Assembly (NCBI GenBank): GCA_041665585.1 | Contig: JBAYIN010000005.1 | Coordinates: 29,622-93,621 of the forward strand | Origin: Patescibacteria group bacterium | GTDB taxonomy: Bacteria > Patescibacteriota > Gracilibacteria > JAHISY01 | Length of the DNA: 64,000 bases | Direction: 5' to 3' | The notes under the pieces: generated by a model | What the model was told of the DNA's origin: nothing | Database searches by the model: none | The model's input: the letters and a program-made list of their open reading frames with translations, nothing else | Translations under genes and position numbers: made by a program | Part shown: positions 4,847-62,016 of the stretch, in pieces | Layout: the number at the start of each line of letters is the position of its first letter | Numbering within the stretch: position 1 is the stretch's first letter

Positions 4847-4879
4847 AATCCCGAAGGGACCCCTTCGGGGCTATCAACT
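4847..4879. repeat. 33-nt double-hairpin element, copy 1
   Basis: 'aatcccgaagggaccccttcggggctatcaact'. An exact reverse-complement copy is at 37982..38014. It is flanked here by the 10-nt direct repeat 'ctatcaacta' (4834-4843 and 4871-4880). Confidence 0.9.
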
Positions 4880-4889
4880 ACAAACTGAC

Positions 4890-4973: not shown

Positions 4974-5001
4974 AAATTAAAATGAATAGGGAGAATCAAA
5001 T

Positions 5002-5039
5002 TGGGGTGTCGTCCCGCTTAGCGGGATAAGGCAGCGGTT
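5002..5039 (+). pseudogene. tRNA-Gln 5'-half fragment with inserted hairpin
   Basis: 'tggggtgtcg' + 'tcccgcttagcggga' + 'taaggcagcggtt'. The D-arm sequence is replaced by the hairpin. Confidence 0.6.
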
Positions 5040-5054
5040 GAAAATTTAACTAAT

Positions 5055-5129
5055 TGGGGTGTCGCCAAGCGGTAAGGCAGCGGTTTCTGGAACCGCCATG
5101 CGGGGGTTCGAATCCCTCCACCCCAACCA
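5055..5129 (+). tRNA. tRNA-Gln: tRNA-Gln (anticodon CTG), CCA encoded
   Basis: Cloverleaf folded by hand. Acceptor tggggtg/cacccca. Anticodon arm gcggt-ttCTGga-accgc. T-arm ggggg-ttcgaat-ccctc. Confidence 0.9.
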
Positions 5130-5259
5130 ACAAAATGTTCTCGCCACAAAGTGGCGGGGTTATTTTGTTTGGGGTACGAGGGTGAAAACACCCGGGAGCA
5201 CAATCTTCGAATTTCACGAAACTTTCCGGCGCGTGCCGTCGCGGAATTTTGAATCTCGA

Positions 5260-5300
5260 CAAACTTCGAGCCAGCTTCGAATCCCTCCACCCCAACCAAC
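5260..5300. repeat. Direct repeat containing the tRNA-Gln 3' end (left island boundary)
   Basis: 5276..5300 is identical to tRNA positions 5107..5131 ('ttcgaatccctccaccccaaccaac'). The upstream 'caaacttcgagccagc' matches the repeat at 9926. Confidence 0.85.
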
Positions 5301-5403
5301 ACGGGCACCCATGCTCGACTCACTTGCCCTAGACATGGGGGTATAATGCTTAGTTCATTATAAAAGGAATATAATTAAACTCGGATCGATAATCATTTTC
5401 AAT

Positions 5404-6582
5404 ATGACTGCACATGACCCAAAACAGGAAATCAATCAGCTCCAAGAGATTTTATGCAGCCCCTCTAAAAAAATAGGATTTCTTTTTGGTGCAGGAATCT
5501 CAATGAAAAAAACCGATGGTACTGACTTAATCATCGGAACAGATGGAATGACTTCCGCCGTGATAAGCGAATTTATCTCTCCGCAAAAAGAAGCGATTGA
5601 GCTGATTAAAACTGAAATTGAGACTGATAGTAAAAAATTCAACATAGAAACTTTACTTTCTAAAATTTCTGAAAAGGCAAGGGCGGCTGGCAGTGAAAAA
5701 TTATGTGGACTGAAAAAGATCGAGTTGGAAAAATTACGAGATGATATAGAAAATGAAATAAGAGAGAAGGTGTCAGTCCACAATACTAGCCATCCATCTC
5801 ATTCAGAGATTGAAAAAACAAATCACAATACATTTGCGAAATGGATTAAAAATGCGGATAGAGAATTTCCAGTGGAAATTTTTACTACAAACTATGATTA
5901 TCTCTTGGAGCTTGCCCTTGAAAAACAGCAAATCCCATATTTTGATGGATTTGTCGGTAGTTATAAAGCATTTTTTTGCCCAGAATGGATTGAGGCAGAC
6001 TCTCCAGTAAAAGATTGGGCAAAATTATGGAAGCTGCATGGCTCCCTTGGGTGGGAACAAAACGAGGTAAAGGAAATCGTTAGAACATCAGGGGTAAGTG
6101 GTAAGGCAATGATCTATCCATCGTTTTTAAAGTATGACCACTCAAAAAAACAGCCATACCTGAGTTACATGGACAGACTTTCTTATTTCTTGCGACAAGA
6201 GGATTCCGTTCTTTTTATTTGTGGCTATTCTTTCGGTGATGAGCATATCAACGAGATAATTCTGACATCACTTACGCGGTCACGTTCTTCGCATGTGTTT
6301 ATATTCAAAAACAGTGAATTAGCAGAGAAAGATTTTTTATCTACAGAAATTGCACAAAAAAATTCCAAAGTGTCGGTTTATGCGAAAAGATCTGCCGTCA
6401 TTGGTTGTAAATTTGGGGATTGGAGACTTGCTTCGAGAGAAGATCAGTTAGATTTTTATAAAGAAGACAAGCCAACAACAGCCAAAGATTGGGATGGTGG
6501 CGGAGAATTATCGCTAGGTGACTTTAAAGAATTCGCTGCTTTTTTATCAGAATTTTACAGAAAACATAATGCCCAAAAATAA
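5404..6582 (+). CDS. SIR2-like (SIR2_2 family) NAD-utilising defence effector
   Basis: 392 aa. 'GFLFGAGIS', 'FTTNYDYLLE', 'KLHGSLGW' and 'ICGYSFGDEHIN' are hallmarks of defence-type SIR2 domains. Confidence 0.8.
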   Translation: MTAHDPKQEINQLQEILCSPSKKIGFLFGAGISMKKTDGTDLIIGTDGMTSAVISEFISPQKEAIELIKTEIETDSKKFNIETLLSKISEKARAAGSEKLCGLKKIELEKLRDDIENEIREKVSVHNTSHPSHSEIEKTNHNTFAKWIKNADREFPVEIFTTNYDYLLELALEKQQIPYFDGFVGSYKAFFCPEWIEADSPVKDWAKLWKLHGSLGWEQNEVKEIVRTSGVSGKAMIYPSFLKYDHSKKQPYLSYMDRLSYFLRQEDSVLFICGYSFGDEHINEIILTSLTRSRSSHVFIFKNSELAEKDFLSTEIAQKNSKVSVYAKRSAVIGCKFGDWRLASREDQLDFYKEDKPTTAKDWDGGGELSLGDFKEFAAFLSEFYRKHNAQK

Positions 6583-8353
6583 TGAAACATTTATCGGTAA
6601 AGTTAGTAGCGTGACTGGTAGCACGCTTGCTATTGAGTTGGACGAAAATATTCGATCAACTCTTCCGATTATTGATGGTGTTTTGTATCGTGTTGGTCAA
6701 ATAGGTTCTTTTATCAGGATTCCACTTGGTTATGTGAATCTGTATGGCGTCATTACCCAAGCTGGTTCTGATGCGATTCCTGAAAAATTAGTTGAACAAG
6801 AGAATATGCGAGGATCTCGCTGGATAAAAGCAACTCTGATTGGTGAAGGAATCGGTAAAAAATTTGAAAAAGGAGTTCTAAAATTTCCAATTGCCGATGA
6901 CGAAGTGCATTTAGTTACAAAGGACGATCTCGAACTTATTTATGGAGGATTGGACGAAGCAAAATCAATTGCCGTTGGACAGGTGAGCGCATCTGAGAGT
7001 CTTTCTGCGAGAATCGACATTGATCGATTTATTAATCGACATTGCGCTATTTTAGGATCTACTGGAAGTGGAAAATCAAACACTGTTTCGGTTATCTTGG
7101 AGGCCATTGCGACAAGAAAAGATAAAAATGGGGATGACATAAAAAGCACAAGAATTCTTTTAATTGATCCTCATGGAGAATATGGAGAAATTCTGAGTGA
7201 ATATAGCCAAATTTTTAAAGTTGGGGCAGATACTTCAAAACAAGAAAAAGAACTTATAATTCCATATTGGGCATTGCCTTTTCAGGAATTCATAAAAAGT
7301 TTTCCAGGTAAATTAAACGAAAAGCAGGAAGAATATATTCGGGAAAAAGTTTTAAAGAAAAAAATTGAGGCTTCTAAAAATCTAAATACCGCGCCAAAAG
7401 AGGAGGCGATTACGGCTGATAGTCCGATACCTTTTAGCGTTAGGCAGTTATGGTTTGAATTGGATGATTTTGAAAGGAAGACTTTCAAAAAAGACAGAAT
7501 TACTACCACTCTAGATTCAGCTAATCCTGGAAATGCTCAAAACTTAAAATCTAATAAATACGAACCTGTTGGCATTGGGTCATCCGAGCCATTTTTAAAC
7601 AACTCAGCACAGGGAGTCTTAGGATTTCTTACTTTAATGAAAAATCGACTTTTAGATACGCGGTTTAGATTTCTATATGAATTGGGTAATTTAACACCAG
7701 CGTTGGACGGGAAAATTATAGGCGATCTAGATACTCTCATTCAGGAGTGGGTAGGGGCAGAAAAACCAATAACGATTCTCGACCTCTCTAGTATCCCTTC
7801 GGAAATTATGGGATCAATCTCAGGTTCTTTGCTGTCGATTATTTATGAGTTTTTATACTGGGGGCAAAATGAGGATGTAGGTGGGCGTAAAACGCCTATA
7901 TTGCTGGTCTTGGAAGAAGCCCATAATTACTTAAAATCAGGAGAAAATTCTATTGCCTCGCGTACTGTTCAGAAAATAGCAAAAGAGGGGCGTAAATATG
8001 GATCTGGTCTTTTACTTGTAACACAGCGACCGTCAGAATTGGATGAGACTGTTTTAAGTCAGTGCGGATCAGTTATCGCGTTACGAATGACAAACTCAAA
8101 CGACCGAGGACGTATAAAAAATTTCGTTGAAGATTCTTTGAACGAATTAGTGGAGCTTTTGCCAAGTTTGAGAACTGGTGAGGGTTTAATCATGGGTGAG
8201 TGCGTAAAACTTCCAATGCGCACAAAGTTTAGTAAAGCAAAAGAATCCAAAAGCACAGATCCGCTCGTCTCCGAACAATGGAAGAAAGATTTGCCGAATG
8301 CAGCAAATTATAAAAAGGTGCTTGAATTTTGGCGTAATAACAAATTTACTTAA
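6569..8353 (+). CDS. HerA-like (DUF87) P-loop ATPase, partner of SIR2
   Basis: Walker A 'GSTGSGKSN', Walker B 'ILLVLEEAHNY', and 'LLLVTQRPSEL'. The start is taken at the ATG at 6569 (MPKNNETFIGK), which overlaps the SIR2 stop by 14 nt. Confidence 0.85.
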   Translation: MPKNNETFIGKVSSVTGSTLAIELDENIRSTLPIIDGVLYRVGQIGSFIRIPLGYVNLYGVITQAGSDAIPEKLVEQENMRGSRWIKATLIGEGIGKKFEKGVLKFPIADDEVHLVTKDDLELIYGGLDEAKSIAVGQVSASESLSARIDIDRFINRHCAILGSTGSGKSNTVSVILEAIATRKDKNGDDIKSTRILLIDPHGEYGEILSEYSQIFKVGADTSKQEKELIIPYWALPFQEFIKSFPGKLNEKQEEYIREKVLKKKIEASKNLNTAPKEEAITADSPIPFSVRQLWFELDDFERKTFKKDRITTTLDSANPGNAQNLKSNKYEPVGIGSSEPFLNNSAQGVLGFLTLMKNRLLDTRFRFLYELGNLTPALDGKIIGDLDTLIQEWVGAEKPITILDLSSIPSEIMGSISGSLLSIIYEFLYWGQNEDVGGRKTPILLVLEEAHNYLKSGENSIASRTVQKIAKEGRKYGSGLLLVTQRPSELDETVLSQCGSVIALRMTNSNDRGRIKNFVEDSLNELVELLPSLRTGEGLIMGECVKLPMRTKFSKAKESKSTDPLVSEQWKKDLPNAANYKKVLEFWRNNKFT

Positions 8354-8366
8354 TTATTTTTTCATT

Positions 8367-8579
8367 ATGGATAGAACTCCAGTCTCATCATCGAACATAG
8401 CCGCCATTGGCTATGATTCAGATACGGAAACTTTAGAAATAGAGTTTCTGAATGGCACCTTGTATGAATATAGAAATGTTCCTCAGGTTATTTATGATGA
8501 GTTAATGCGTGCCCCATCTCGCGGAATATACCTTAATAAAGAAATTAGGAATGCCTATCCCTACTCAAAAATAGGTTAA
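8367..8579 (+). CDS. KTSC domain protein
   Basis: 70 aa. 'VSSSNIAAIGYDSDTETLEIEFLNGTLYEYRNVPQVIYDELMRAPSRG' matches the KTSC consensus. The start is 13 nt after the HerA stop. Confidence 0.85.
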   Translation: MDRTPVSSSNIAAIGYDSDTETLEIEFLNGTLYEYRNVPQVIYDELMRAPSRGIYLNKEIRNAYPYSKIG

Positions 8580-8593
8580 TAATTTTGTTGTCG

Positions 8594-8680
8594 ATGCCTA
8601 TCACTGCTTCCGACCTCTACTCGTACACCTCCTGCCCGCACCGCGTCTACCGCGGCGCGCACGATAACTGCCACCTCTGA
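8594..8680 (+). pseudogene. N-terminal remnant of a RecB/Cas4-like nuclease
   Basis: The 28-codon ORF 'MPITASDLYSYTSCPHRVYRGAHDNCHL*' resembles the conserved N-terminus of putative RecB-family nucleases and then terminates. Confidence 0.4.
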
Positions 8681-8988
8681 AAATTATTTCCCTATCTCTA
8701 TCTCCCCTTCTTTCACCCTCAACCCCACCTTCAAACATCCAATCGCCTCGCGCTTTTCTTCCTTCGTCCCCTCTCGCAAAACTCCCGCTTTCGCGAGGGC
8801 AGGCACCCTTCGCATACTTTCGCACATCCACTTTTGGAATTTTCGCCTCGCCATCCAGCACTCCAGATGTGAATTTCTAATCCAAACAGCAATTATTGAC
8901 GATATGATTACCTATTTAAAATTATCTGTAAGACATTTGCATTACAGATTATTTTAAGTTAAAATTGAGGTGTATTAATTAAAAAAAC

Positions 8989-9234
8989 ATGCCTACCCCA
9001 ACTCTGACTTTCCGCACCAACCTCCGTGATCAAGCGGCTAAAAAAGCTCAAAATATGGGTATTCCGCTCTCTTTGGTTTTGAATAATGCCTTGAGGGTTT
9101 TTCTCAAATCTGATGATAGCGTCATTATCGGTAAGCCTCAAATGATTGAGCTTCCAGCCGATTTGCAGCAAAAGGTTGATGAATTGGGTGAACTGGCTCA
9201 AAAGGCTGTCGCAAAAAAACTCGCTAAAAAATAA
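8989..9234 (+). CDS. Small protein, possible antitoxin
   Basis: 81 aa. It sits immediately upstream (3-nt gap) of a 123-aa ORF. 'TFRTNLRDQAAKKAQNMGIPLSLVLNNALRVFL' looks like a ribbon-helix-helix/DinJ-type N-terminus. Confidence 0.4.
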   Translation: MPTPTLTFRTNLRDQAAKKAQNMGIPLSLVLNNALRVFLKSDDSVIIGKPQMIELPADLQQKVDELGELAQKAVAKKLAKK

Positions 9235-9237
9235 TTA

Positions 9238-9609
9238 ATGTTACTTTTACCTCATTCTATTGTTTTTTATGAATTAGAACCCATCGGTGAATTTTTCCCA
9301 ATTTCATCGATTGTAAAAGCAGCCAAAAAAATTAAAGACGGTCTCGGTATTCCAATTTCGGGTGCTTCGGTAAATTCCAAACTCATCAAAGTTTATCTAA
9401 CCAGCAAACAAGCAGCAGGAAGGGCGGTTTTTCTCGTTAAGCTAAAAGAGGGATACATTATTCCTGTTGTAGTCAGGCTGAAAAAGGATGCTGTCGGTAA
9501 AAATATCACTCCTAAAGATAAAGCTTTCGCTGCTGTTTTAGCAAAAAATCTTGCGCTGATTGCCGAAGATTTAGCCGATGGTAGTTTTGATTTACTGCCT
9601 TTGAAATAA
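9238..9609 (+). CDS. Hypothetical protein, possible RelE/HigB-like toxin partner
   Basis: 123 aa. The segment 'AAGRAVFLVKLKEGYIIPVVVRLKKDAVGKNITPKDK' loosely resembles RelE/HigB-type toxins. Confidence 0.3.
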   Translation: MLLLPHSIVFYELEPIGEFFPISSIVKAAKKIKDGLGIPISGASVNSKLIKVYLTSKQAAGRAVFLVKLKEGYIIPVVVRLKKDAVGKNITPKDKAFAAVLAKNLALIAEDLADGSFDLLPLK

Positions 9610-9925
9610 TTATGCGCTACTACAAAAATCTAAGCCCCAAGGAACGTCGCCGTACAATCTTAAAAGCAGTCGCTTTCAGCGAGGCGATGGAAAATAATAA
9701 GGTAGCTTTTTCGCATTGCAGGAAAGAATTGAAAAACTGGACGATAAAAAGTGATTTTTTGCTTATTTAAAGCGAAATGATGCTCACTTTTAAGTTAGAA
9801 TTAAAATCACTTTTTAGTGTCTCATTTGTCTCATTTTTCTAGGCGACTCACCTGCCTTCTGGCGACTTCGGAAGAATGCCTCTAAAATCCCTGCAGGGTT
9901 GTGACACTAGACTCACCTGTTCAAC

Positions 9926-9985
9926 CAAACTCCGAGCTAGCTTCGAATCCCTGTCTGCCGGCAGGCAGGCCTCCACCCCAACCAA
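9926..9985. repeat. Direct repeat of the tRNA-Gln 3' end, split by a hairpin (right island boundary)
   Basis: 'caaactccgagctagcttcgaatccc' + a ~20-nt insert containing the palindrome 'ctgccggcag' + 'tccaccccaaccaa'. Confidence 0.8.
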
Positions 9986-10005
9986 TAGCTTTTAATCAAA
10001 AATCT

Positions 10006-10461
10006 ATGAAAAAGATATTATTGCCGTTAAGCGTGTTGGGCTTAGTCCTGCTGCTTAGCTCTTGCACAAAAAATACTGAACCGAAAAACGATTGTGAGTC
10101 AAAATGCGAAGCGGTCTGCGAAATGTGCCTAGAAGCTATTACCTGCGAAGAATGTAAAAATGGATGCAGCGTTTGTGGTGTTGCGGTCTTGGACGAAGTC
10201 AAAGAGCAACCGGATTGCGACAAGATAAAAGAAAGAATGTCTCAATGCAATTCACCTAAAGAAGAATCCAATAGCTGCGAAGCAGCATGCAACAATTACA
10301 ACAAGCAATGCCTCAGCTTGGTTCCGAATGCTAATCAGGCTTTATTTGATCAAGGCTACGAATCATGTATGGCTGAGTGCCAAAACTGGACTGGAGAAAA
10401 AATCGACTGCATGGAGACGGCTCAAGACTGCCCGTCGATGACGGAGGTTTGCGGGCTGTAA
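10006..10461 (+). CDS. Cysteine-rich lipoprotein
   Basis: Signal peptide with lipobox 'LLLSSC'. About 20 Cys residues in the mature part. The start is taken at the ATG at 10006, because the upstream part of the tracked ORF is tRNA-derived repeat. Confidence 0.6.
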   Translation: MKKILLPLSVLGLVLLLSSCTKNTEPKNDCESKCEAVCEMCLEAITCEECKNGCSVCGVAVLDEVKEQPDCDKIKERMSQCNSPKEESNSCEAACNNYNKQCLSLVPNANQALFDQGYESCMAECQNWTGEKIDCMETAQDCPSMTEVCGL

Positions 10462-10576
10462 TGCAAAAGACTCTGCTCTGAATAGTCGACGACGACAAGC
10501 TCTACCTGCGAGAAGCGAAGTGAATTTAAATAATAGCTCGTGGTAAAATTCATTTGCACTTTTAACCTTCGCACTC

Positions 10577-10825
10577 ATGAATAGATGTATGGAATTGGGC
10601 GGACCTGGTGGCTCTCCAGAATGTCTGCATGCTCTTTGGCCGTTCATAATCCCCCTGGTGCTGTGGAGTCTTTTTTGGAAAGGACTCGCGCTCTGGCACG
10701 CCGGCAGAAAAGGTCAACCGTGGTGGTTCGTGATTCTGCTGGTGGTCAATACGCTCGGCATTCTCGAAATTATTTATCTTTTCTTGGTTCTCAAAATCAA
10801 GCTTGAGAAGCTTTTCAAGAAGTAG
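10577..10825 (+). CDS. DUF5652-like small membrane protein
   Basis: 'LWSLFWKGLALWHAGRKGQPWWFVILLVVNTLGILEIIYLF' is a family signature common in CPR genomes. Confidence 0.65.
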   Translation: MNRCMELGGPGGSPECLHALWPFIIPLVLWSLFWKGLALWHAGRKGQPWWFVILLVVNTLGILEIIYLFLVLKIKLEKLFKK

Positions 10826-10860
10826 CTCATTTCGAGAAATAGCGTTTGCTTAGCTCCCAA

Positions 10861-10905
10861 TCAGCACTCAAAACCTGCACTTGAGTGCAGCCGAGTGCTG
10901 TTTTT
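10861..10905 (+). terminator. Rho-independent terminator
   Basis: 'cagcactc...gagtgctg' stem enclosing an inner 'gcactcaa/ttgagtgc' hairpin, followed by 'ttttt'. Confidence 0.6.
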
Positions 10906-11027
10906 GGCGATTAATTCGCTTACGAAAGCCATAAATCTGATTTAGGCGGTTATTCTGCTTGCGTAAGCCAAAAAAACGGATTATTCAGCATCTGAGGTCG
11001 TCCAAGTGCTGGTTTGCTCGCTGCGGA

Positions 11028-13364
11028 TCACTCCAGAACCTCGAATTTGACCTGACTGGAGAGCTCGCCCGAACGCGCAGTCGCCGTGTGCTGACCGACT
11101 TTGGGCTGCCATTCGGTGCGGTAGTCGGGTGCTAGAGCGGTACCAATGGAAGCGCCGTCAATGAACCACTCCACACTGCTGACATCTGCCGCTGCGCGCG
11201 CTTCGAAAATAATTTTTTCGTCAGTGTCGGGCACGAGCGGGTCCAGCTCAAAACTGTCGTGGATATTTGGTTTAGTAATCGTGAGACTTGGCTCGGTGGC
11301 AGTGGATGCCGGAGCCTGGCAGAGTGGTGAATGCAGGCGCGGCGGTTCTGTCCAGCCGTTTTCACGCGCCCACTTCTGTAATTCGAGCGGAAAAATCGCG
11401 AACACTTTCGTCTCAGTCGTTTCTGCCGGACAACCCTTGCCGAGCAGTCCGTTGCGCTGGTCAAGCACGACTGGCTGAAAAATGTCATCCGGAACTCGGG
11501 GTTCGGTGCCGGCGCTGAAAGATTCCAGAATTGTCTGCGGACAATACTCCGTCGGTAATTTCCCGGACAGACGGCAAATCGTCGTCGGAATGATTCCGGC
11601 TGGTCGCGCGAAATTGTGCGGCGGCAGGCCGCGCGTCGCCGCGAGCATGACTTCGTGAAAAATCGGACCTGCGCCCGTGACACCGGAAGTTCCGCGCATG
11701 GGAGAATTGTCCGCATTGCCGACCCAGACTCCGACAATGCGGTCGGGTGTGAAGCCGAGCGTCCAATTGTCGCGCGAATTGCGCGTCGTGCCTGTCTTGG
11801 CAGCGACCGGGAAATCGAAAGAGAGTGGCGAATTTTCGCCGAATTCGGGCAGGCGCGCGTTTTGATCCGCGAGCATGTCGGTGATGAGCCAAGCGACGCG
11901 CGCATCGAGAATTGGCGTGCCGGACTGAGCGGGTGCGGTCTGAAAAACTTGCAGCGGCAGAGTCACACCGCCGCGCGCGAAGATGCCATACGCCTGCGCC
12001 AATTCCAGCAGGCGGACTTCGCCGTCGCCGAGCGTCAGTGCTAGACCGTAAAATTCCGGCTCTTGTTTGAGCGTCGTGATGCCGGCAGCTCTCAGCAAGT
12101 TTAATAATTTTTCGACGCCGACTTTTTCGAGGACTTTGACTGCGGCGATGTTGTAGGAATTCGCGAGTGCCTCGCGGTAGCGCACCAGTCCGTGGTAACC
12201 GTAATCGTAATTGCGCGGAATGTAGGGATTGCCTTCCTGCGTGAAGAATTGCGTCTCGATGTCAGCGACGGTCGTGGCTGCCGTCTCCCCTGCCGCGAGC
12301 GCGAGCGCGTAAGTGAAAGGCTTGAGCGCGGAACCGGGTTGGCGAGGCGCGACCGCGACATTCACTTGACCATTGTTTTCCGTGTCCCAATAATCCGCCG
12401 AACCAAGCAGCGCGAGTAATTCACCCGTGTGTGCATCGAGCACGACCACTGCCGCGTCCGTGACATTTTTGTCGGCTAATTTCGCAAGTTCGTTTGTGAC
12501 GATCAACTCGATTTCGCTTTGGAGCTCGAGGTCAAGCGTCGTTTCAATTTTAACGCCAGCTTGCAATTCCTCAGCGTAATTTTGCTGCAGCCAAGCGATG
12601 AAATGCGGTGCGTGCATTTTAATTTTGTCGGCGGCGAGTCTGAGCGGTTCAGCAGTGGCACTGGTGAATTCGTCGGCAGAAATTTTGTCCGTCTCGCGTA
12701 GAGCCGTGAGTACAGTTTGTTGCCGCGCTTGGGCCGCCTCAGGATTCACGAATGGATCGAGATTCACCGGCGACTGCAGCAGTCCAATCAGTAAAGCTGA
12801 TTCTGCCAGACTGAGTTCGCCGACTTGCTTGCCGAGATAAATTTGCGCCGCTGCGCTGATGCCGTAAGCCTGATGACCGAAGTAAGCCGTATTGAGATAA
12901 CTTTCTAAAATTTCGGACTTGCTCAGCTGTCGCTCCAGGCGCAGCGCGAAATAAGCTTCTTGAATTTTGTAACAATAACCACGGTGCTCCGGCTGCAGAC
13001 GATTGCGCACGAGCTGCTGCGTAAGAGTGCTGCCGCCCGCGACGATGCGTCCCGCTTGGAAATTCAAATACGCCGCGCGCAGAATCCCACGCAGACTTAT
13101 GCCCGGATGACTGTAAAAATCGCGGTCTTCTGTCGCGAGCAGTGCGGCGACAATTGTCGGTGGAATATCCGGCAGCGCGATTTTGTCCTGCGCGCCATAA
13201 TCAGCACTGCGCAGGGAATAAAGCAGCTGACCATCACGAGCGAGAATCTGCGTCGGTTCACGCAGGGCTGGATTCGTCAGATTGCCGGGTAGCGGCCAGC
13301 AGAATAGCGCCACCAGCAAGGTCAGCGCTATTCCGAGAACGAACCAACTTTTCTTGAGTTTCAT
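11028..13364 (-). CDS. pbpC: Bifunctional penicillin-binding protein, PBP1C-type (glycosyltransferase + transpeptidase)
   Basis: 778 aa. GT51 motifs 'EDRDFYSHPGI' and 'GGSTLTQQL'. Transpeptidase motifs SxxK 'SALK', SxN 'SYN' and 'KTGTT'. C-terminal PBP1C-type beta domain. Confidence 0.85.
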   Translation of the reverse strand: MKLKKSWFVLGIALTLLVALFCWPLPGNLTNPALREPTQILARDGQLLYSLRSADYGAQDKIALPDIPPTIVAALLATEDRDFYSHPGISLRGILRAAYLNFQAGRIVAGGSTLTQQLVRNRLQPEHRGYCYKIQEAYFALRLERQLSKSEILESYLNTAYFGHQAYGISAAAQIYLGKQVGELSLAESALLIGLLQSPVNLDPFVNPEAAQARQQTVLTALRETDKISADEFTSATAEPLRLAADKIKMHAPHFIAWLQQNYAEELQAGVKIETTLDLELQSEIELIVTNELAKLADKNVTDAAVVVLDAHTGELLALLGSADYWDTENNGQVNVAVAPRQPGSALKPFTYALALAAGETAATTVADIETQFFTQEGNPYIPRNYDYGYHGLVRYREALANSYNIAAVKVLEKVGVEKLLNLLRAAGITTLKQEPEFYGLALTLGDGEVRLLELAQAYGIFARGGVTLPLQVFQTAPAQSGTPILDARVAWLITDMLADQNARLPEFGENSPLSFDFPVAAKTGTTRNSRDNWTLGFTPDRIVGVWVGNADNSPMRGTSGVTGAGPIFHEVMLAATRGLPPHNFARPAGIIPTTICRLSGKLPTEYCPQTILESFSAGTEPRVPDDIFQPVVLDQRNGLLGKGCPAETTETKVFAIFPLELQKWARENGWTEPPRLHSPLCQAPASTATEPSLTITKPNIHDSFELDPLVPDTDEKIIFEARAAADVSSVEWFIDGASIGTALAPDYRTEWQPKVGQHTATARSGELSSQVKFEVLE

Positions 13365-54856: not shown

Positions 54857-56055
54857 TTTCGCAAGAGGGTGAATTTTGGTAATTCCGCGGAAATCTCGAG
54901 CCAAACTTTCGAACGCTGACCACCGTGCGCCTCAGAGATTTCGGTCAGTTTTTCGTCGAAAATTTTTGTGATTTGGAATTTTTGAATCGCGCCACCCGGC
55001 GGCATTGCCTCAATTTTAGCACCTTTTTTGAAGTGATTTTTTGGCATCAGCAGAATTCTGCCCTGTAAACTTTTTTCCACCAAGCCAAGAAAATTTTGGG
55101 GATTTTCCGCCGCGGATCGTTCGAAATTTTGCAGATTTTGCAGCGTGCCGTCGAAAAATCCGAGCGTAAAATCGCGGTTGCCCGTCGTCCGAATTTCGCG
55201 CCACAAGCTCGGATCAAATTTCCGACCAGCGGTGCAATCATCGAGCGCCTGACGGTAGGCGCGTGTAATCGTCGCGAGATAACCGAGCGATTTATTGCGA
55301 CCTTCAATTTTAAACGAGCAAATACCAAGCTTCGCGAGCTGCGGAATTTTTTCAATCAAAGCGAGATCGCGCGAATTCAAAATATAACTCCCCTGCGCAT
55401 CTTCCTCGATGGGAAAAAATTCGCCCGGGCGTTTTTCCTCAACAAGCGAATACTGCCAACGGCACGGCTGCGCGCACTGCCCGCGATTCGCGTCGCGTCC
55501 GGCGAGAAAGTTGGAAAGTAGGCAGCGACCCGAGTAAGACATGCAAATCGCACCGTGCACGAAAACTTCGAATTCCATCTTCGGATTCGCCGCCACGATT
55601 TTTTTCGTCTCGGCGAAAGACAGCTCGCGCGCGAGAATCACGCGTGAAACGCCGAGTTTTCGCCACATCTGAACAGTGCGTGAATTAACTGAATTCGCCT
55701 GTACTGATAGATGTTTCGCGACTTTGGGAAAAAATTTTTGCAAAGTTGCGAGCACGCCGAGGTCGGAAAAAATGAAAGCATTCGGCGGCGTCGCTTGTAG
55801 TTTGGCGAGAAAATTTTCCAATTTTTTAAATTCGGAATCGCGCGGAAAGGTGTTGGTCGTGAGGTAAATTTTCTTTTTCGCCGCGCGGCAAATTTTGATG
55901 GCCTGCCGAATTTCGGAAATGCCAAATTTATTTTCGCCGACTCGCAACGAAAAATCCGGCGTGCCGAGATAGACCGCATCCGCTCCGAAAGCGAGCGCTG
56001 TGCGCAATTTTTCGAGATCGCCCGCAGGCGCGAGTAATTCAGTGGAATTGTTCAA
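54850..56055 (-). CDS. Peptidase U32 family protein
   Basis: 401 aa. 'ELLAPAGDLEKLRTALAFGADAVYLG', 'FVHGAICMSYSGRCLLS'. Confidence 0.85.
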   Translation of the reverse strand: MNNSTELLAPAGDLEKLRTALAFGADAVYLGTPDFSLRVGENKFGISEIRQAIKICRAAKKKIYLTTNTFPRDSEFKKLENFLAKLQATPPNAFIFSDLGVLATLQKFFPKVAKHLSVQANSVNSRTVQMWRKLGVSRVILARELSFAETKKIVAANPKMEFEVFVHGAICMSYSGRCLLSNFLAGRDANRGQCAQPCRWQYSLVEEKRPGEFFPIEEDAQGSYILNSRDLALIEKIPQLAKLGICSFKIEGRNKSLGYLATITRAYRQALDDCTAGRKFDPSLWREIRTTGNRDFTLGFFDGTLQNLQNFERSAAENPQNFLGLVEKSLQGRILLMPKNHFKKGAKIEAMPPGGAIQKFQITKIFDEKLTEISEAHGGQRSKVWLEISAELPKFTLLRKC

Positions 56056-56156
56056 AATGTTCTAATTGTTATAAGTGTTCTAGCTGTCGAACCAGCGCAG
56101 CCAGCAAACAATTCGAACGGAAAGTATTTTAAACTAAGTCGCGCTAAAATTTCGGA

Positions 56157-57101
56157 ATGCTGAATTGGGAAAAATTTCCGCGTCCGATTCTCGCGCTCGC
56201 GCCGATGGCGGGTTACACCGACTCGGCTTTTCGGCAGCTCATTCGCAGTTTTTCGAAAAATGTAATTCTCTGGAGCGAATTCGTCTCGGCTGATGCGCTG
56301 AAATTCGATTCGCAGAGGTCGAAGCAAATGCTGTCTTTCGCGAAAAAAGAACAGCCTTTCGTCGCGCAGATTTTCGGGAAACGACCGGAGAGCTTCATCG
56401 AAGCCGCGAAATTCGTCGAGTCGATCGGCGCGGTCGGCGTCGATCTGAATTTCGGCTGCCCTGCGAAGAAAGTCGTGAATTCCGACCACGGCTCGGCGTT
56501 GCTCAAAAATCCGAAACTCGCGAGCGAAATAATTTCCGCAGTCGCGCACTCGGTCAAAATTCCGACGAGTGTGAAAATGCGCCTCGGTATCGCGGATGCT
56601 GCAAATTTGGAAAGCTTCGCCAAAATGGTCGAAGACTCTGGCGCGCAGCTGCTCACGATTCACGGCCGGACGGCAAAACAAATGTACCGCGGTGAAGCGG
56701 ATTTCGCGCCAATTTATCGCGTAAAAAAAATTCTGAAAATTCCGGTGCTGGGAAATGGTGACATCGATTCGGCGGACAAATTTTTCGCGCAGCTCGGCAA
56801 TCTCGATGGACTGATGATCGGTCGCGCCGCCGTCACGAATCCCTGGATTTTTCGGGAAATTGAGAATCGACTCGCCGGCAAAATCTCGCGCACGCCGAAA
56901 ACTTTGGCAGGTAAAATTCCGACGATTTTGCGCCACGCCCAATTGATGATTCAAGAAAAAGGTGAGCAACGCGGCATGCTCGAGATGCGCAAATTCTCCG
57001 CGAATTATGTGCGCGGCGAACCCGGCGCGAAAATTTTGCGAGCCAAATTGGTGCGCGTCGAGAAACTCAGCGAGCTCGAAAAAATCCTCGCGAAAAGATA
57101 A
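56157..57101 (+). CDS. tRNA-dihydrouridine synthase
   Basis: 'LAPMAGYTDSAFR', 'VDLNFGCPAKKV', 'LTIHGRT'. Confidence 0.9.
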   Translation: MLNWEKFPRPILALAPMAGYTDSAFRQLIRSFSKNVILWSEFVSADALKFDSQRSKQMLSFAKKEQPFVAQIFGKRPESFIEAAKFVESIGAVGVDLNFGCPAKKVVNSDHGSALLKNPKLASEIISAVAHSVKIPTSVKMRLGIADAANLESFAKMVEDSGAQLLTIHGRTAKQMYRGEADFAPIYRVKKILKIPVLGNGDIDSADKFFAQLGNLDGLMIGRAAVTNPWIFREIENRLAGKISRTPKTLAGKIPTILRHAQLMIQEKGEQRGMLEMRKFSANYVRGEPGAKILRAKLVRVEKLSELEKILAKR

Positions 57102-57119
57102 TTTAGGCTAAATATAAAT

Positions 57120-57148
57120 TTGATTTTGGAGTCAAAATAATGTATAAT
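57120..57148 (+). promoter_or_regulatory. Near-consensus sigma-70-type promoter (TTGATT, 17 nt, TATAAT)
   Basis: -35 'ttgatt' at 57120-57125, 17-nt spacer ending in 'tg', -10 'tataat' at 57143-57148. It lies about 365 nt upstream of the RM gene ATG. Confidence 0.4.
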
Positions 57149-57512
57149 ATATGCGAACCGTTACTAAGAAATGCTCTTTGAAATTACGGAATCTTGAGGC
57201 GCAAGTGGTGATGATCTAAAAATAATCGATTATCGCCGATTGTGCCTTAAGCTTCACATAGTAGTAATAAGTCTGGTTATAAACTTTCCCAAAGGTTTAT
57301 GGTCACTATTAACTCGCTCTAAACGGGCTTGGTGTTTAGAGAGAAGTAATAGACAGATTATAAGTTAAGGTAACTTAATTTATAGGAGATTAATACAGTA
57401 ATGTTTTATTTTTTACTCTAAGCTCTCATCTGATACTGAAAATACTGTTTGAAACTTGAGGCTTTTTTATTGTGTAAAATTTTTCACAATTAAAAAGGCT
57501 AAAGCGGGTAAA

Positions 57513-60284
57513 ATGAGCGAAATGCCAGCACCTCAAAAAACACGTCCTAAGTGTAGTCGAAAGATTCTCGAACTCGTCGCGCACTTTCGCGAAGCCAAAA
57601 ATCACAAAATGGTGGAAACGGTTTTGCGCCAGCAGTTTCTCGACAAGTTTTTCGTGGAGCTGGGGTGGGATGTGACAAACAACGCGGGCAAAATCGGGCG
57701 CGAAATGGAAGTGGATCTCGAACAAAGTATCGAGACGCGCGAAGGTCGGACGGAGCACAAACGCGCGCCGGATTACTCTTTTCGCGTGGATGGGAAGACG
57801 AAATTTTTCGTCGAAGCGAAAAAGCCGTCGGTGGATATTCTGGGTGGCATTGGTCCGGCGTACCAAGTCCGGCGCTACGGCTGGTCGGCAAAGCTCGGGG
57901 TTTCGATTCTCACGGATTTTGAGGAGTTCGCGGTTTACGATTGTCGGGTGAAGCCGAAGGCAGGCGACAAAGCGAGTGTGGCGCGGCTTTTTTATTGTAC
58001 TTTCGAAGAATACGCGGAACGGTGGGAGGAGATTGCGGGACTCTTTTCGCGGGAAGCCGTACACGCCGGCAAGCTGGACGCATTCATCGGCGCGGGGAAG
58101 AAAAAAGGCGTAGTGGCAGTGAACGATGATTTCCTACACACGATCGAAAGCTGGCGCGACGAACTCGCGCGACATCTCGCGGTGCGCAATCCGGAGCTTT
58201 CGCAGGACGAGCTGAATTTCGCGGTGACAAAAATAATCGACCGAATCATCTTCCTCCGCATCGCGGAAGATCGGAATATCGAAAATGAAGGCACACTCCA
58301 AAGAATTGCCGAGCGCGATGGTACTTACGCGGAGCTGAAAAAGCATTTCACCAAAGCGGACGAAAAGTACAACTCGGGACTTTTTCATTTCCGAGCGGAG
58401 CCGGGCGTAACCGAGGGAATCGATACGATCACGCCGAAATTACAAATCGACGACGGGATTTTGAAAAAAATCATCAACGAACTCTATTTCCCGCGGAGCG
58501 AATACGAATTCTCCGTGATGCCAGCGGACATCCTCGGGCAAGTGTACGAGCAATTCCTCGGCAAAGTGATCCGACTCACGGACGGTCACCGCGCGAAGGT
58601 GGAGGAAAAACCGGAGGTGCGCAAAGCGGGCGGAGTGTATTACACGCCGGAATACATCGTGGATTACATCGTACAGAATACGGTGGGAAAATTATGTGAA
58701 AGCAAAACGCCAAAGCAGATTGCGGAATTAAAAATCGTCGATCCTGCGTGCGGCTCGGGTTCTTTTCTCATCGGCGCGTATCAGTATTTGCTCGACTGGC
58801 ATTTGGAGTACTACACGAAACATCTGAAAACTTATGCCGACAAATTGTATTCCGTGAAGGGTAAGAAATATCTGACAATCGCGGAGCGGAAAAGGATTTT
58901 GTTGAATAATATTTACGGGGTGGATATCGATGCGAACGCGGTGGAGGTGACGAAGTTGTCTCTACTTCTCAAAACTCTCGAGGGTGAGGTTCAGCCGTCG
59001 CTTTTCCACGAGCGGGTTTTGCCGGATCTCTCGCGCAATATCCAATGCGGCAACTCGCTAATTGGCACGGACTTTCACGTGGCGAGTTTGTTTGCAGAAG
59101 ATGATGTGGGGCGGATGAAGGTGAATGCGTTTGATTGGGAGGCGGGATTTCCGGAGGTGTTTGCGCAAGGTGGCTTTGATGCGGTGATTGGGAATCCGCC
59201 GTATATCAGAGCGAGAGAATTACCAGTCGAACAAAAAATGTATTTCGAAGCTAATTATTCGACGGCAAAAAATCAGTACGACATTTACGCTGTTTTTATC
59301 GAAAAATCTTTGGGTTTAGTTAAACCAAACGGTTTAGTTTCTTTCATCACTCCAAATAAGTTTTTAGTAGCTCAATATGGTTTTGAATTAAGAAAGTTTA
59401 TTTGTGAAAACTCTAAACTAATTGATTTTCAAGATCACTCGAAAAAAGATATCTTTGGTGGTGTGAGTGTTTATCCGATTGTTTTTGTTTTGCAGCAAGG
59501 ACGAAGCGCAAAAAAATGCGGTGACAATTTTGATTTACTTCAAGTTTTTGGTTTTAAAAAAGAGGATATTGTGATTCAGCGAATGAAAAAAGCTGAATTA
59601 AGCCTTGGCGATGTTTGCACAATCAAAGAGGCGGTTCACACGGGTAATATTCGCGAAAAACTGATTTGCGATAACAAAAGAAATGCAAATTGTTTTAAGT
59701 TATTACGAGGTCAAGATTGCAATCGCTACACGATAAAATGGGCTGGCTTGTGGGTTGATTATTCGGTCACTCCGAATAAAAGTAAAAAGGAATATGCAAA
59801 TTTAATCGACAAATCTCACTTTGAGGGAGAAAAATTATTTTTGCGCGAGATTGCGTTGAGACCATCTGCAGTCTTTGATGACGAGAATTATTTTTCGTTG
59901 AACAAGGCTTATGTTTTAAAGAAAAAATCTGATTGCGAGCTTCCGCTCAAATATATTCTCGGAGTGATTAATTCAAAAGCGGCTGAATATTTCTTTGAGA
60001 AAGAGTTTGGCGATATTCGCGTGAGCGGTGGCTATCTCCAATTTAAAAAACAATTTTCTTCTCAAATTCCAATTCCGACCTCTTCAAAATCCCAACACGA
60101 TCGTGTTGTCGCTCTCGTGGAGCAGATGCTCGCGCTCCAGAAAAAACTTCCCGCTCTCACGCTCCCGCACGACCGCGAGTCGCTGTCTCGGCAGATTGCC
60201 GCGACGGATCGGCAGATTGATGAGCTGGTTTTTGAGTTGTATGGGTTGAGTGAGGAGGAACGGAAAGTGGTTTTAAATTCTTAA
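57513..60284 (+). CDS. Type IIG restriction enzyme / N6-adenine DNA methyltransferase (fused nuclease-MTase-TRD)
   Basis: N-terminal PD-ExK nuclease ('APDYSF...FFVEAKKP'). Gamma-class MTase motifs 'GVYYTP', 'DPACGSGSFLI' and 'NPPY'. TaqI-like C-terminal specificity domain. The start is taken at the ATG at 57513. Confidence 0.85.
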   Translation: MSEMPAPQKTRPKCSRKILELVAHFREAKNHKMVETVLRQQFLDKFFVELGWDVTNNAGKIGREMEVDLEQSIETREGRTEHKRAPDYSFRVDGKTKFFVEAKKPSVDILGGIGPAYQVRRYGWSAKLGVSILTDFEEFAVYDCRVKPKAGDKASVARLFYCTFEEYAERWEEIAGLFSREAVHAGKLDAFIGAGKKKGVVAVNDDFLHTIESWRDELARHLAVRNPELSQDELNFAVTKIIDRIIFLRIAEDRNIENEGTLQRIAERDGTYAELKKHFTKADEKYNSGLFHFRAEPGVTEGIDTITPKLQIDDGILKKIINELYFPRSEYEFSVMPADILGQVYEQFLGKVIRLTDGHRAKVEEKPEVRKAGGVYYTPEYIVDYIVQNTVGKLCESKTPKQIAELKIVDPACGSGSFLIGAYQYLLDWHLEYYTKHLKTYADKLYSVKGKKYLTIAERKRILLNNIYGVDIDANAVEVTKLSLLLKTLEGEVQPSLFHERVLPDLSRNIQCGNSLIGTDFHVASLFAEDDVGRMKVNAFDWEAGFPEVFAQGGFDAVIGNPPYIRARELPVEQKMYFEANYSTAKNQYDIYAVFIEKSLGLVKPNGLVSFITPNKFLVAQYGFELRKFICENSKLIDFQDHSKKDIFGGVSVYPIVFVLQQGRSAKKCGDNFDLLQVFGFKKEDIVIQRMKKAELSLGDVCTIKEAVHTGNIREKLICDNKRNANCFKLLRGQDCNRYTIKWAGLWVDYSVTPNKSKKEYANLIDKSHFEGEKLFLREIALRPSAVFDDENYFSLNKAYVLKKKSDCELPLKYILGVINSKAAEYFFEKEFGDIRVSGGYLQFKKQFSSQIPIPTSSKSQHDRVVALVEQMLALQKKLPALTLPHDRESLSRQIAATDRQIDELVFELYGLSEEERKVVLNS

Positions 60285-60299
60285 ATTTATTTTTTAAAT

Positions 60300-61793
60300 A
60301 TGAGCAATTTAGATAAAACTTATTTTTCGGAGATTTTCAATGTCGATCATTCTATAGTGGAAAGTTATGGAGCGTTAGACATATCGCTTGTATGTGATAA
60401 TCCGGCTTTTGTCGATCCGTTTCTTATTTTCGCAAATCCGGAATATAAAAATCTTCATGACTTTATTATTGAATATTTAAAATTTTTAAGGGATTTATCG
60501 CAAAAGAGTGACTCATTGGATTTAGAAGATGGTATTTTTAAACACTATTATAAATTTCCTGAGGTAAAAGAGGTTTGGCTAGGGTACTCTGCCATTGGTA
60601 ATGCCGGCTTAGGTAATTCCAAAGTATTTGCAGATTCTTTGTATAGAAATTTAAATAAAATTTTTTCTAATTTCGGCAAAGAAAAAGAAGGAATAACAAA
60701 ATCTCAACATCTCGAGAAGCTTTGTCTGATTGAAGAAGGCATAGGTGTTGACAAGATAAGTGATTTTACGATCAACTTGATAAAAGAGTTTTTTTTACGA
60801 TACACAGAAAAATTTGCACAAAAACATATCGACAAAAGTCTTCTAAAAGAATTTGCAGTCCCCAAGGTATCATTTGATTTTGAAAATCAAATTTGGAAAG
60901 GAAGTAAATTCATTCTGCCTTACATTACAAGAAATGGAAAAGAACAATTCGTTCTTTTGGTGCCGAAAGACATAATTGCAAAGTATGATACTTGGATTTC
61001 AAGAAACGATTTTCTGAAAAACGATACGAGCATTTTCGCCTCTATTGAAAATGACGAAATTAGGGCAAAAATAAATAAATATTTTAATGATCAACTGAAT
61101 ATTAAAATTACTAAACATGGACAAGAAAAAGATTTTTCTAAAAAAAGCAGGAAGGGGGCTTTGCAAAAGACGATGCGAGAGTTCCCTGCGATTGTTGACT
61201 ACTACATAAGATATAAAGAGTCAGAAGAAGACAAGGCATTAGAAAATAATTTGTTGGATGCCGAAAACGTCGATTTGTATTTAGATGTTGCGAACATCAA
61301 AAGAGAATTAAGAAAAAGGAAATTTGGGAAAATTACGGTTATTGATGACTGCATCCAGAGAATTTTATTTTTCAAACAAACACTGGAATCGAATAGTAAT
61401 TCTTTATACCTTAAAGAGAAATCGTTACAAGAAAAGCAGTTGCAATTGATGTTTAAGAATGCAACTTACGGATCACTCTTTGATTATAATTCAGAAGTTA
61501 ATAATGGAAGAGGTCCAATAGATTTTATTGTCTCGTTTGGGATAAATGAAAAAATTGGAATAGAGTTTAAATTAGCCTCTAATAGCAAACTAAAACAAAA
61601 TTTATTAAACCAAGGGAAAGTTTATCAGGATGATTCTAATCTTAAACATGTAATAAAAGTTATTTTCTTTTTTTCAAATCAAGATTTAGAAGCGATACAA
61701 AAAGTGTTAAGTGTACTTAAAAAAAGTGTTGATAATCGTGAAATTTTTCTGATTGATTGTAGAAAAAAAGAATCTGCATCTAATCAAAAATGA
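60300..61793 (+). CDS. Uncharacterised protein with C-terminal PD-(D/E)XK-like nuclease motif
   Basis: 497 aa, AT-rich, 15 nt downstream of the RM gene. C-terminal 'EKQLQLMF...GRGPIDFIVSFGINEKIGIEFKL' fits an E...D...ExK pattern. The N-terminal ~380 aa has no motif I recognise. Confidence 0.5.
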   Translation: MSNLDKTYFSEIFNVDHSIVESYGALDISLVCDNPAFVDPFLIFANPEYKNLHDFIIEYLKFLRDLSQKSDSLDLEDGIFKHYYKFPEVKEVWLGYSAIGNAGLGNSKVFADSLYRNLNKIFSNFGKEKEGITKSQHLEKLCLIEEGIGVDKISDFTINLIKEFFLRYTEKFAQKHIDKSLLKEFAVPKVSFDFENQIWKGSKFILPYITRNGKEQFVLLVPKDIIAKYDTWISRNDFLKNDTSIFASIENDEIRAKINKYFNDQLNIKITKHGQEKDFSKKSRKGALQKTMREFPAIVDYYIRYKESEEDKALENNLLDAENVDLYLDVANIKRELRKRKFGKITVIDDCIQRILFFKQTLESNSNSLYLKEKSLQEKQLQLMFKNATYGSLFDYNSEVNNGRGPIDFIVSFGINEKIGIEFKLASNSKLKQNLLNQGKVYQDDSNLKHVIKVIFFFSNQDLEAIQKVLSVLKKSVDNREIFLIDCRKKESASNQK

Positions 61794-61941
61794 ACTCTTG
61801 CTTCCAAATTTAAATCTTCCACCCACCCCTTCCTCCTCTTCTCGCCGAGGCCCGGCTGACATCGTAATTTTCCGACGAAATATAACCCCGCGATTCATCA
61901 TCGCCGGTCCATCCGATTGAAAAATTTTTATCGAGATTTTT

Positions 61942-62016
<75 letters not shown>

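Follow-up and report, generated by a model that had tools for sequence, protein, structure and literature searches.

A mobile DUF8370/DUF8371 gene behind a Type IIG restriction–modification gene in a Patescibacteria genome: a candidate single-gene anti-phage module with exchangeable effectors

Introduction

Several bacterial defence proteins combine a regulatory or sensing domain with a nuclease. PrrC has a regulatory module at its N-terminus and a nuclease at its C-terminus; PrrC and RloC both join an ABC-ATPase to an anticodon nuclease, and their genes are nested between hsdS and hsdR of restriction–modification (RM) operons, which in the case of PrrC is the Type Ic operon EcoprrI. Shedu (SduA), Cap4, Can2, and Card1 carry a sensing domain and a PD-(D/E)XK nuclease on a single polypeptide. 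Here we analyze a gene of similar two-part design, ORF2, which directly follows the gene of a Type IIG RM enzyme in a 64,000-nt stretch of DNA from a Patescibacteria group bacterium (Gracilibacteria; assembly GCA_041665585.1, contig JBAYIN010000005.1, positions 29,622 to 93,621). This whole stretch is called the window, and all coordinates are positions in it unless another locus is named.

Candidate defence genes have also been collected by their location. PDC systems were defined by 'guilt-by-embedding', being located inside BREX, DISARM, or Type I RM loci; one of them, PDC-M36, is a three-gene cassette, FAM_01399>>FAM_00303>>FAM_00303, whose entry is given in the supplement only (Payne et al., bioRxiv 10.1101/2024.01.29.577857). 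In P4-like satellites, the int–psu interval has been established by experiment as an anti-phage reservoir (Rousset et al. 2022, PMC9122126), and when eight P4 hotspot loci without a known function were picked at random, six proved protective against phages (NAR 2026, PMC13586616). The general logic of modular sensor-effector proteins in RM loci and defence hotspots is already well known; the family to which ORF2 belongs is uncharacterised in the literature that we searched.

An earlier reading of this locus from its letters alone (hereafter the sequence-only reading) had proposed that the RM enzyme and the ORF2 product form a two-gene defence system. For the latter it had offered three roles: an effector activated by the RM enzyme or by phage anti-restriction, a modification-dependent (Type IV-like) nuclease complementing the RM enzyme, or an independent single-gene defence protein. 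Our analysis fits the last of the three best. With moderate confidence, we consider ORF2 to be a self-contained, horizontally mobile single-gene anti-phage module, probably co-transcribed with the RM enzyme and acting as an independent second layer.

Results

ORF2 carries a predicted PD-(D/E)XK nuclease module

As the sequence-only reading had described, ORF2 (60300..61793, + strand) is an AT-rich gene encoding 497 aa that starts 15 nt past the RM stop codon on the same strand; its GC content is 0.30, against 0.48 in the flanks. The translation contains YFSEIFNVDHSIVESYGALDISLVCDNPAFVDPFLIF. Precomputed matches assign this protein and 100+ relatives to two Pfam families, PF28123 (DUF8370) and PF28130 (DUF8371). 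Our searches against local copies of Pfam-A and NCBIfam returned nothing at E ≤ 1, the local Pfam copy being older than these two models. Among PHROGs, families of unknown function alone were matched, and no match was found in sequenced phage genomes (INPHARED).

The C-terminal module, DUF8371 (61341..61793, + strand; aa ~348–497), contains the string 'GPIDFIVS...IGIEFK', in which the sequence-only reading had recognized a restriction-endonuclease-like motif. A full-length AlphaFold2 (AF2) model, based on an alignment of 66 sequences, had a pLDDT of 90.1 and a pTM of 0.89. The ~150 aa of the C-terminal module follow the order alpha-beta-beta-beta-alpha-beta in this model, that is, the PD-(D/E)XK core. 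E378 is placed by the model on the first helix, D408 where the second strand begins, E422-x-K424 on the third strand, and Q438xxxY442, which we take to be a RecB/Cas4-type motif, on the next helix. The codons of D408, E422, and K424 lie at 61521–61523, 61563–61565, and 61569–61571, respectively. Each of E378, D408, E422, K424, Q438, and Y442 was conserved in 59–65 of 66 diverse homologues, and the C-terminal motif is no chance match because D408, E422, and K424 are kept at this level.

Foldseek searches with the model, a check that the sequence-only reading had asked for, gave weak matches, of which the informative ones were all PD-(D/E)XK nucleases: SfsA, EcoO109I, PspGI, Can2, Card1, Cdn1, the Cas4-like ACE1, Mus81, and EndoMS. 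The alignments were short and local, with E-values of 0.009–0.1 in the PDB and of 8e-4 with probability 1.0 in BFVD; viral entries named 'PD-(D/E)XK nuclease', 'restriction endonuclease', or Mrr were matched with probabilities of up to 1.0 and weak E-values. These results suggest that the module is an intact RecB/Cas4-like PD-(D/E)XK nuclease, whose activity is predicted.

The N-terminal module belongs to a widespread family

The N-terminal module, DUF8370 (60300..61340, + strand; aa 1–347), matches nothing characterised, as had been noted from the sequence: searches of Pfam and NCBIfam, PDB profile searches, and Foldseek gave no match. Modelled alone with AF2, the ~345-aa module had a pLDDT of 92 and a pTM of 0.90. 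Foldseek found no match to its fold in the PDB (best E-value 0.42, TM < 0.1), and a PDB sequence search with the 66-sequence profile found nothing meaningful. Twelve residues are invariant among 83 sequences (D33, D39, P40, F86, E88, D151, S154, D155, T169, L206, P207, and P222) and five are near-invariant (H53, N101, G103, H137, and E139); a Gly-rich loop, G-N-x-G-x-G, is placed between a strand and a helix. The 12 invariant residues hold across the nuclease, TIR, and caspase variants described below. Such strong conservation suggests a defined small-molecule, metal, or nucleic-acid ligand, and the conserved set may form a ligand-binding, metal-binding, or catalytic pocket.

In two of the alignments (A3 and A5), Trp replaces the otherwise invariant Gly at G95, G103, G105, G149, G403, and G414 in three to five homologues. 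These columns would match the expectation for UGA=Gly genes (genetic code 25, e.g. Gracilibacteria/Absconditabacteria) translated with UGA=Trp.

Scoring of 8000 candidates gave 2234 matches to the family, and at 50% identity there were 1566 clusters with E ≤ 1e-3. Relatives occur in at least 499 species-representative genomes of Pseudomonadota, Bacillota, Acidobacteriota, Chloroflexota, Bacteroidota, Actinomycetota, Planctomycetota, Nitrospirota, and candidate phyla. All named copies are labelled 'hypothetical protein' or 'DUF8370 family protein'. We found no paper about PDC-M36, PF28123/PF28130, or DUF8370/DUF8371 in the literature searched for these names, and so far the only records of the family are its two DUF entries and listings as hotspot cargo without a name.

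The only defence-database model that matched ORF2 was PDC-M36A of PADLOC (aa 32–264 to positions 30–249 of a profile of 457, E = 2.3e-15); the same model weakly matched 82 of 83 family members. The PADLOC scan that had been suggested from the sequence identified the RM gene (REase_MTase_IIG), whereas for ORF2 it yielded this partial match alone. PDC systems and the DUF8370/DUF8371 family share RM-embedded contexts, and the family appears from the profile match to be a distant relative of PDC-M36A, itself a candidate system. Membership of ORF2 in PDC-M36 was rejected: the match covers the N-terminal module only, the two downstream FAM_00303 genes are absent, and no neighbour recurs at position +1 or +2 in the 80 loci surveyed below. 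The window copy has no downstream partner, because a tRNA gene comes next.

The N-terminal module is constant, whereas the effector is exchanged

We examined 35 family representatives as a variant set, defined by a match to ORF2 that ends early or by a protein longer than ORF2. The output modules fused to DUF8370 among these 35 variants were TIR (eight), CHAT (three), caspase (two), EAD7 (two), SEFIR (one), SIR2 (one), and the PNP-type phosphorylase PNP_UDP_1 (one). Database annotation backs the combinations DUF8370 + TIR_2, DUF8370 + EAD7, DUF8370 + (weak DUF8371) + SIR2_2, and DUF8370 + (faint DUF8371) + caspase + EAD7; PF28123 stands alone, without PF28130, in the TIR and EAD7 fusions. The nuclease of the fusion variants is decayed: D408, the SEVNNGRGPxDF segment, and QxxxY are lost, and only the 'EFKLASN' strand is left. 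ORF2 of the window retains all catalytic residues. One TIR variant (P0200), the only one with an informative flank, lies among housekeeping genes.

A constant DUF8370 with exchangeable outputs corresponds to what is seen in immune proteins that combine one unchanging sensor or regulator with interchangeable toxic effectors, and this exchange implies that the nuclease is the working effector of the canonical 497-aa form. Shedu has the opposite arrangement, with a constant nuclease and a variable N-terminus. ORF2 matched neither the SduA_C model nor the SAVED/CARF-nuclease models, and it has no CARF or SAVED domain; Can2, Card1, and Cdn1 resemble it in domain layout or in the weak structural matches noted above.

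The exchange of effectors also bears on a Type IV-like role, in which the N-terminal module would read modified phage DNA and the nuclease would cut it, so that phages evading the Type IIG enzyme by base modification would also be covered. A reader-plus-PD-(D/E)XK layout beside RM genes would suit such a role, and a downstream neighbour at one other locus is GmrSD-like, which indicates that such islands do gather Type IV enzymes. However, relatives of ORF2 have a degenerate nuclease or none, and in its place, or after the degenerate copy, stand TIR, SIR2, or caspase/CHAT modules, which do not act on DNA. Searches of the N-terminal module by sequence and fold for modified-base readers (SRA, EVE/YTH, DUF262/GmrSD_N, McrB-N, and Mrr-N) found none, nor any similarity to other known readers. 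The Type IV-like role is therefore disfavoured, and we regard it as very improbable.

A homologue is the sole cargo of P4-like satellites in Escherichia coli

When the Mangrovibacter copy (locus L010) was used as the query, 17 of 5426 complete E. coli genomes were matched. In all five genomes that were inspected, the homologue lies in a P4-like satellite at tRNA-Leu, where it is the only gene separating int from psu, and the satellite has no RM gene. Full-length alignment of the E. coli protein with ORF2 gave 43% identity (E = 3e-126), and all motifs are present in the former. Two such homologues, WP_032291790 and WP_001572310, fill exactly the int–psu cargo site as a single gene, and they appear as 'hypothetical' in a supplementary table of int–psu loci (file 2, PMC9122126). 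As far as the descriptions in the pertinent parts of the two P4 reports go, none of the hotspot systems PARIS, Rst_*, Crouga, Bandua, Aernus, Toga, Reve, and Hailong fits the family protein (PMC9122126, PMC13586616). The window copy differs from this cargo in its setting, being located behind an RM gene and not in a satellite.

The gene moves as a one-gene cassette

We compared the window region 57100–62000 with 17 other loci by blastn (15 of them independent, the other two being the window's own contig). Homology was confined to ~60289–61796, with 77% identity to the nearest relative (L001) and 66–70% to fourteen others, and neither flank was common. In 56 of 70 loci, the focal gene, that is, ORF2 or its relative, had a lower GC content than the DNA around it; the median difference was -7 points. 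The limitation of homology to the ORF, together with its AT-richness, suggests that the gene moves as a one-gene cassette. It was found as cargo of Tn3-family elements and on plasmids and conjugative elements.

The neighbourhood survey comprised 80 loci, the best-scoring of at least 499, with 1370 neighbouring ORFs. Neighbouring genes were crude longest-ORF calls, and RM genes were detected with profiles built from HsdM, HsdR, HsdS, and IIG-like clusters, so that the counts are approximate. Integrases or recombinases adjoined the focal gene in 26 of the 80 loci.

This mobility could also be read as a sign of a non-immune role: an addiction or competition toxin of mobile elements, or a recombination or repair nuclease of plasmids, transposons, and satellites, with RM adjacency reflecting shared insertion hotspots. 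The Tn3-family cargo, the conjugative plasmids, the adjoining integrases and recombinases, and the low-GC cassette behaviour are all consistent with such a role. On the other hand, the alternative effectors TIR, SIR2, caspase/CHAT, and EAD7 are typical of immune systems, no conserved antitoxin-like neighbour was found in the surveyed loci, and the int–psu interval is specifically a defence hotspot (PMC9122126, PMC13586616). Moreover, the density of RM genes declines with distance from the focal gene and is not uniform over the island, as detailed in the next section. Non-immune roles explain less than an independent defence protein does, and we consider them improbable.

RM genes are concentrated directly upstream of the focal gene

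An RM gene was present within 10 kb of the focal gene in 31 of the 80 loci, at most three genes away in 25, and directly adjacent in 17; none was detected within 10 kb in 49 loci, a number that is an upper bound. RM-like genes accounted for 18%, 15%, and 13% of neighbours at positions -1, -2, and -3, for 4–6% at positions +1 to +3, and for 2.2% at a distance of six genes or more, and the enrichment near the focal gene relative to the distant positions was significant (odds ratio 5.2, Fisher p = 2e-8). Of the RM genes at most three positions away, 34 were upstream and 10 downstream, nearly all of them co-directional and tightly spaced. The neighbourhood statistics called for by the sequence-only reading thus showed enrichment beside RM genes and in defence hotspots. 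Other neighbours included Shedu, an SLFN-type helicase, RloB, RhuM, and GmrSD.

The proposal of a dedicated system of a Type IIG enzyme and a 497-aa partner was not supported. All-versus-all clustering of the 1370 ORFs revealed no recurring partner, nor did scanning the -1 and +1 genes with Pfam and PADLOC; the ~246-aa genes downstream in L089 and L093 were considered as a shared partner and rejected, being unrelated to each other. More than half of the loci (the 49 mentioned above) had no detected RM gene, the adjacent RM systems were mostly Type I, of unrelated lineages, and not orthologues of the window enzyme, and homology between loci ended at the ORF boundaries. An obligate two-component system is thus not supported.

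Several arrangements nevertheless recall PrrC. In L095/L096 (P0085) the order is hsdM-hsdS-X-hsdR, X being the focal gene, with gaps of 9 and 1 nt, so that the gene is nested between hsdS and hsdR in the same orientation, as are those of PrrC and RloC. The order is hsdM-hsdS-ATPase-X-247aa-hsdR in P0065 and hsdM-rhuM-X-hsdS in L001, whereas in P0022 the gene lies behind an SLFN-type helicase without an RM gene. P0085, P0065, P0007, and P0022 are close relatives, 60–67% identical. A position inside a Type I operon was also seen in L003, L048, and L093, and MmeI/Eco57I-like or ISP enzymes precede the focal gene in about four other loci (L031, L032, L037, and L089). The window copy, by comparison, stands behind a Type IIG gene.

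These arrangements underlie the main rival to our interpretation, a PrrC-like guard of restriction. In that case, DUF8370 would bind RM enzymes with a gamma N6-adenine methyltransferase core (Type I, IIG, and ISP) and keep the nuclease silent, releasing it when phage anti-restriction disables the RM enzyme, and the window pair would be a two-layer unit. Like PrrC, ORF2 has a regulatory N-terminal module and a C-terminal nuclease. The prrC-like position in L095/L096, the upstream, co-directional bias of RM genes, the recurrence beside independent MmeI/Eco57I-like or ISP enzymes, including that of the window, and the 15-nt gap in the window, with no promoter-like site in or beside it, all speak for a guard. 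However, the 49 loci without a detected RM gene, the E. coli satellites in which the homologue is the sole cargo, and the TIR variant among housekeeping genes speak against it. In contrast to the genes of PrrC and RloC, the DUF8370/DUF8371 gene often has no RM gene nearby. Since the adjacent RM enzymes are of unrelated lineages, a conserved physical interface is hard to picture. ORF2 also lacks the PrrC-type ABC-ATPase module (no ATPase or PrrC model of Pfam, NCBIfam, or PADLOC matched), and its effector is predicted to be a DNA-type PD-(D/E)XK nuclease and not an anticodon RNase. Activation by anti-restriction, one of the roles suggested from the sequence, is possible in itself, and we rate the guard as unlikely, if the most serious competitor.

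An RM accessory nuclease would explain the same positions in another way: ORF2 would be an auxiliary or alternative cleavage or processing subunit bound to the RM enzyme, degrading restriction fragments for example, and not an independent sensor. It would account for the place at the operon tail behind HsdS or a IIG enzyme, for a few loci such as L061 that have HsdM, HsdS, and the focal gene with no HsdR in the stretch examined, and for an operon of methyltransferase, helicase, GIY-YIG, and DUF8370 genes on plasmid pA of Paenarthrobacter ureafaciens (L085). However, the focal gene is frequently solitary, effectors are swapped for non-nuclease domains, and HsdR is already present in most RM-linked loci; we find such a subunit highly doubtful.

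Two of these neighbourhoods contain further genes of possible interest. In the P0007 locus (L089/L090, Humimicrobiaceae contigs; 3949–11502), a plasmid- or ICE-like element with ParA/ParB and type IV secretion system genes carries a co-directional string of a 682-aa HSDR_N_2/N6_Mtase/Eco57I enzyme without a target-recognition domain (TRD), the DUF8370/DUF8371 gene, 473-aa and 246-aa unannotated genes, HARE-HTH, Shedu SduA_C, and NYN RNase genes. This string appears from its gene content to be a compact defence island. In L085, a hypothetical gene, an Hsp70-family gene, and a second hypothetical gene (8587–12831, - strand) are divergent from the DUF8370 operon and could, by placement, be another defence candidate.

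The Type IIG enzyme appears complete in itself

The RM gene (57513..60284, + strand) encodes 923 aa counted from ATG; an in-frame TTG at 57456 would extend the protein by 19 residues to 942 aa, and the 923-aa version is the one given in public annotation of the same contig. The sequence-only reading had described it as a fused nuclease, gamma-class methyltransferase, and TaqI-like specificity protein, and domain searches agreed. Residues 34–147 match Pfam HSDR_N (E = 4.7e-07), an N-terminal PD-(D/E)XK nuclease; residues 338–672 match N6_Mtase/Eco57I/MmeI_Mtase (Eco57I, E = 1.7e-44), a gamma-class N6-adenine methyltransferase; and residues 729–854 match TaqI_C (E = 1.1e-16), the TRD. The whole protein matches PADLOC REase_MTase_IIG (E = 1.8e-203), and its translation contains 'APDYSF...FVEAKK' (PD...EAK), 'DPACGSGSF', and 'GNPPY'. 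Judged by these domains and motifs, the gene encodes a complete Type IIG RM enzyme, which would carry every part needed and would not be a specific partner of ORF2. As in MmeI- and Eco57I-type enzymes, nuclease, gamma-methyltransferase, and TRD are on a single chain; the sole unusual trait noted, compared with them, is a sharply AT-rich TRD block.

This block (59200..60000, + strand; aa ~562–829) extends from just after NPPY through TaqI_C. GC content falls there from ~0.54 (0.545) to 0.31–0.39 and returns to ~0.50 at 60000–60300, the last ~95 codons. It is probably a swapped specificity region that was exchanged by recombination independently of ORF2. The possibility that ORF2 and the AT-rich 3' portion of the RM gene had arrived jointly was rejected, because GC content recovers to ~0.50 between them and the homology between loci stops short of the RM gene.

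Borders and putative regulatory signals of the locus

The RM gene and ORF2 are bracketed by dus (56157..57101) and an initiator tRNA-Met gene (61942..62016, - strand; ARAGORN and Rfam tRNA), as had been stated from the sequence; the latter forms the right-hand border of the accessory segment. Its anticodon is CAT, and the C1:A72 mismatch and three G-C pairs (GGG/CCC) closing the anticodon stem are initiator hallmarks. No known ncRNA besides this tRNA was found in the locus by Rfam searches. Integration scars or att-like repeats were sought around 57100–62000 and none was found; 30 nt within the RM gene resemble the tRNA end with 70% identity, which was judged to be due to chance.

Directly 3' of the dus stop codon, a sigma-70-like promoter candidate (57120..57148, + strand; TTGATT-17-TATAAT, 10/12, a consensus match only) could possibly drive a transcript of the RM gene and ORF2. 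Scanning of the 15-nt, AT-rich spacer between the two genes (60285..60299, + strand) and its edges revealed no promoter- or terminator-like site, and no obvious Shine-Dalgarno sequence was apparent in it on reading the sequence; candidates on the + strand within the genes (59806–59835 and 61045–61072) were weak 9/12 matches. The 363 nt upstream of the RM gene (57150..57512, + strand) are AT-rich, with several long, near-perfect hairpins, and fold with a minimum free energy of -103.9 kcal/mol, compared with -73.1 ± 4.5 for shuffled sequences (z = -6.9). A palindrome at 57455–57504 spans the alternative TTG start. No Rfam family matched this region, and it has no second copy within the window. 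Possible explanations are a structured transcript leader and the remains of an element.

Two antisense ORFs, 57426–58064 (- strand, 212 aa) over the RM gene and 56052–56969 (- strand, 305 aa) over dus, are of low complexity and rich in Arg, Phe, and Ser, and are most likely artefacts mirroring the sense genes. On the same contig, ~20 nt past the right end of the window, a gene for 209 aa that adjoins dprA (L081 13721–14350, - strand) has a weak Pfam match to HEPN_AbiU2; lying ~2.5 kb from the RM gene and ORF2, this gene may likewise serve in defence or abortive infection.

Discussion

We propose that the Type IIG enzyme serves as an autonomous first-line RM system and that ORF2, inserted at the 3' end of its gene and probably present on its transcript, acts as an independent second layer. 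DUF8370 would be the constant sensor or regulator, with a new fold and an invariant acidic and Gly-rich pocket. Detection of an infection cue by this module would switch on the nuclease, which in turn would cut DNA, leading to abortive infection or to destruction of the invader. The results of the checks proposed in the sequence-only reading are consistent with this scheme: relatives are enriched near RM and defence genes, the C-terminus is predicted to be of the PD-(D/E)XK type, and the family is not a known housekeeping one.

Some observations weigh against this interpretation. The assignment of the PD-(D/E)XK fold depends on motifs and weak Foldseek E-values (8e-4 to 0.05), with no strong match. 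DUF8370, with five invariant acidic residues, an invariant Ser and Thr, two near-invariant His, and its Gly-rich loop, could be an enzyme instead of a sensor. The variants that end in EAD7 hint that some members act with a partner in trans. The polarity of RM genes could reflect functional coupling and not hitch-hiking, and the share of RM-free loci is an upper bound because home-made profiles were applied to crude ORF calls. No protection by a family member was reported in the literature searched.

A broader form of coupling may be imagined, in which the N-terminal module is a watchdog of restriction enzymes with a gamma N6-adenine methyltransferase core (Type I, IIG, and ISP): placed at the operon tail, it would sense anti-restriction or restriction products through its pocket and fire whichever effector it carries, be it nuclease, TIR, SIR2, or caspase. 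We treat this as a speculation with a rather low chance of being right; if true, a family unrelated to PrrC and PARIS, and far more widespread, would follow a logic like theirs.

For annotation, the locus is best described as a Type IIG RM gene and a separate DUF8370/DUF8371 defence candidate, not as a single system. The family provides a clear case from nature of effectors being swapped while the sensor stays fixed, and its constant module has no solved structural relative. The polarity at the 3' ends of RM operons bears on the question of whether RM-embedded genes are passengers or are wired to restriction, and the 43%-identical E. coli P4 homologue puts this question within reach of a standard host. 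If the defence role is true, the family would add a widespread system: most bacterial phyla have it, with at least 499 species counted, and it is also carried by plasmids and by E. coli P4 satellites.

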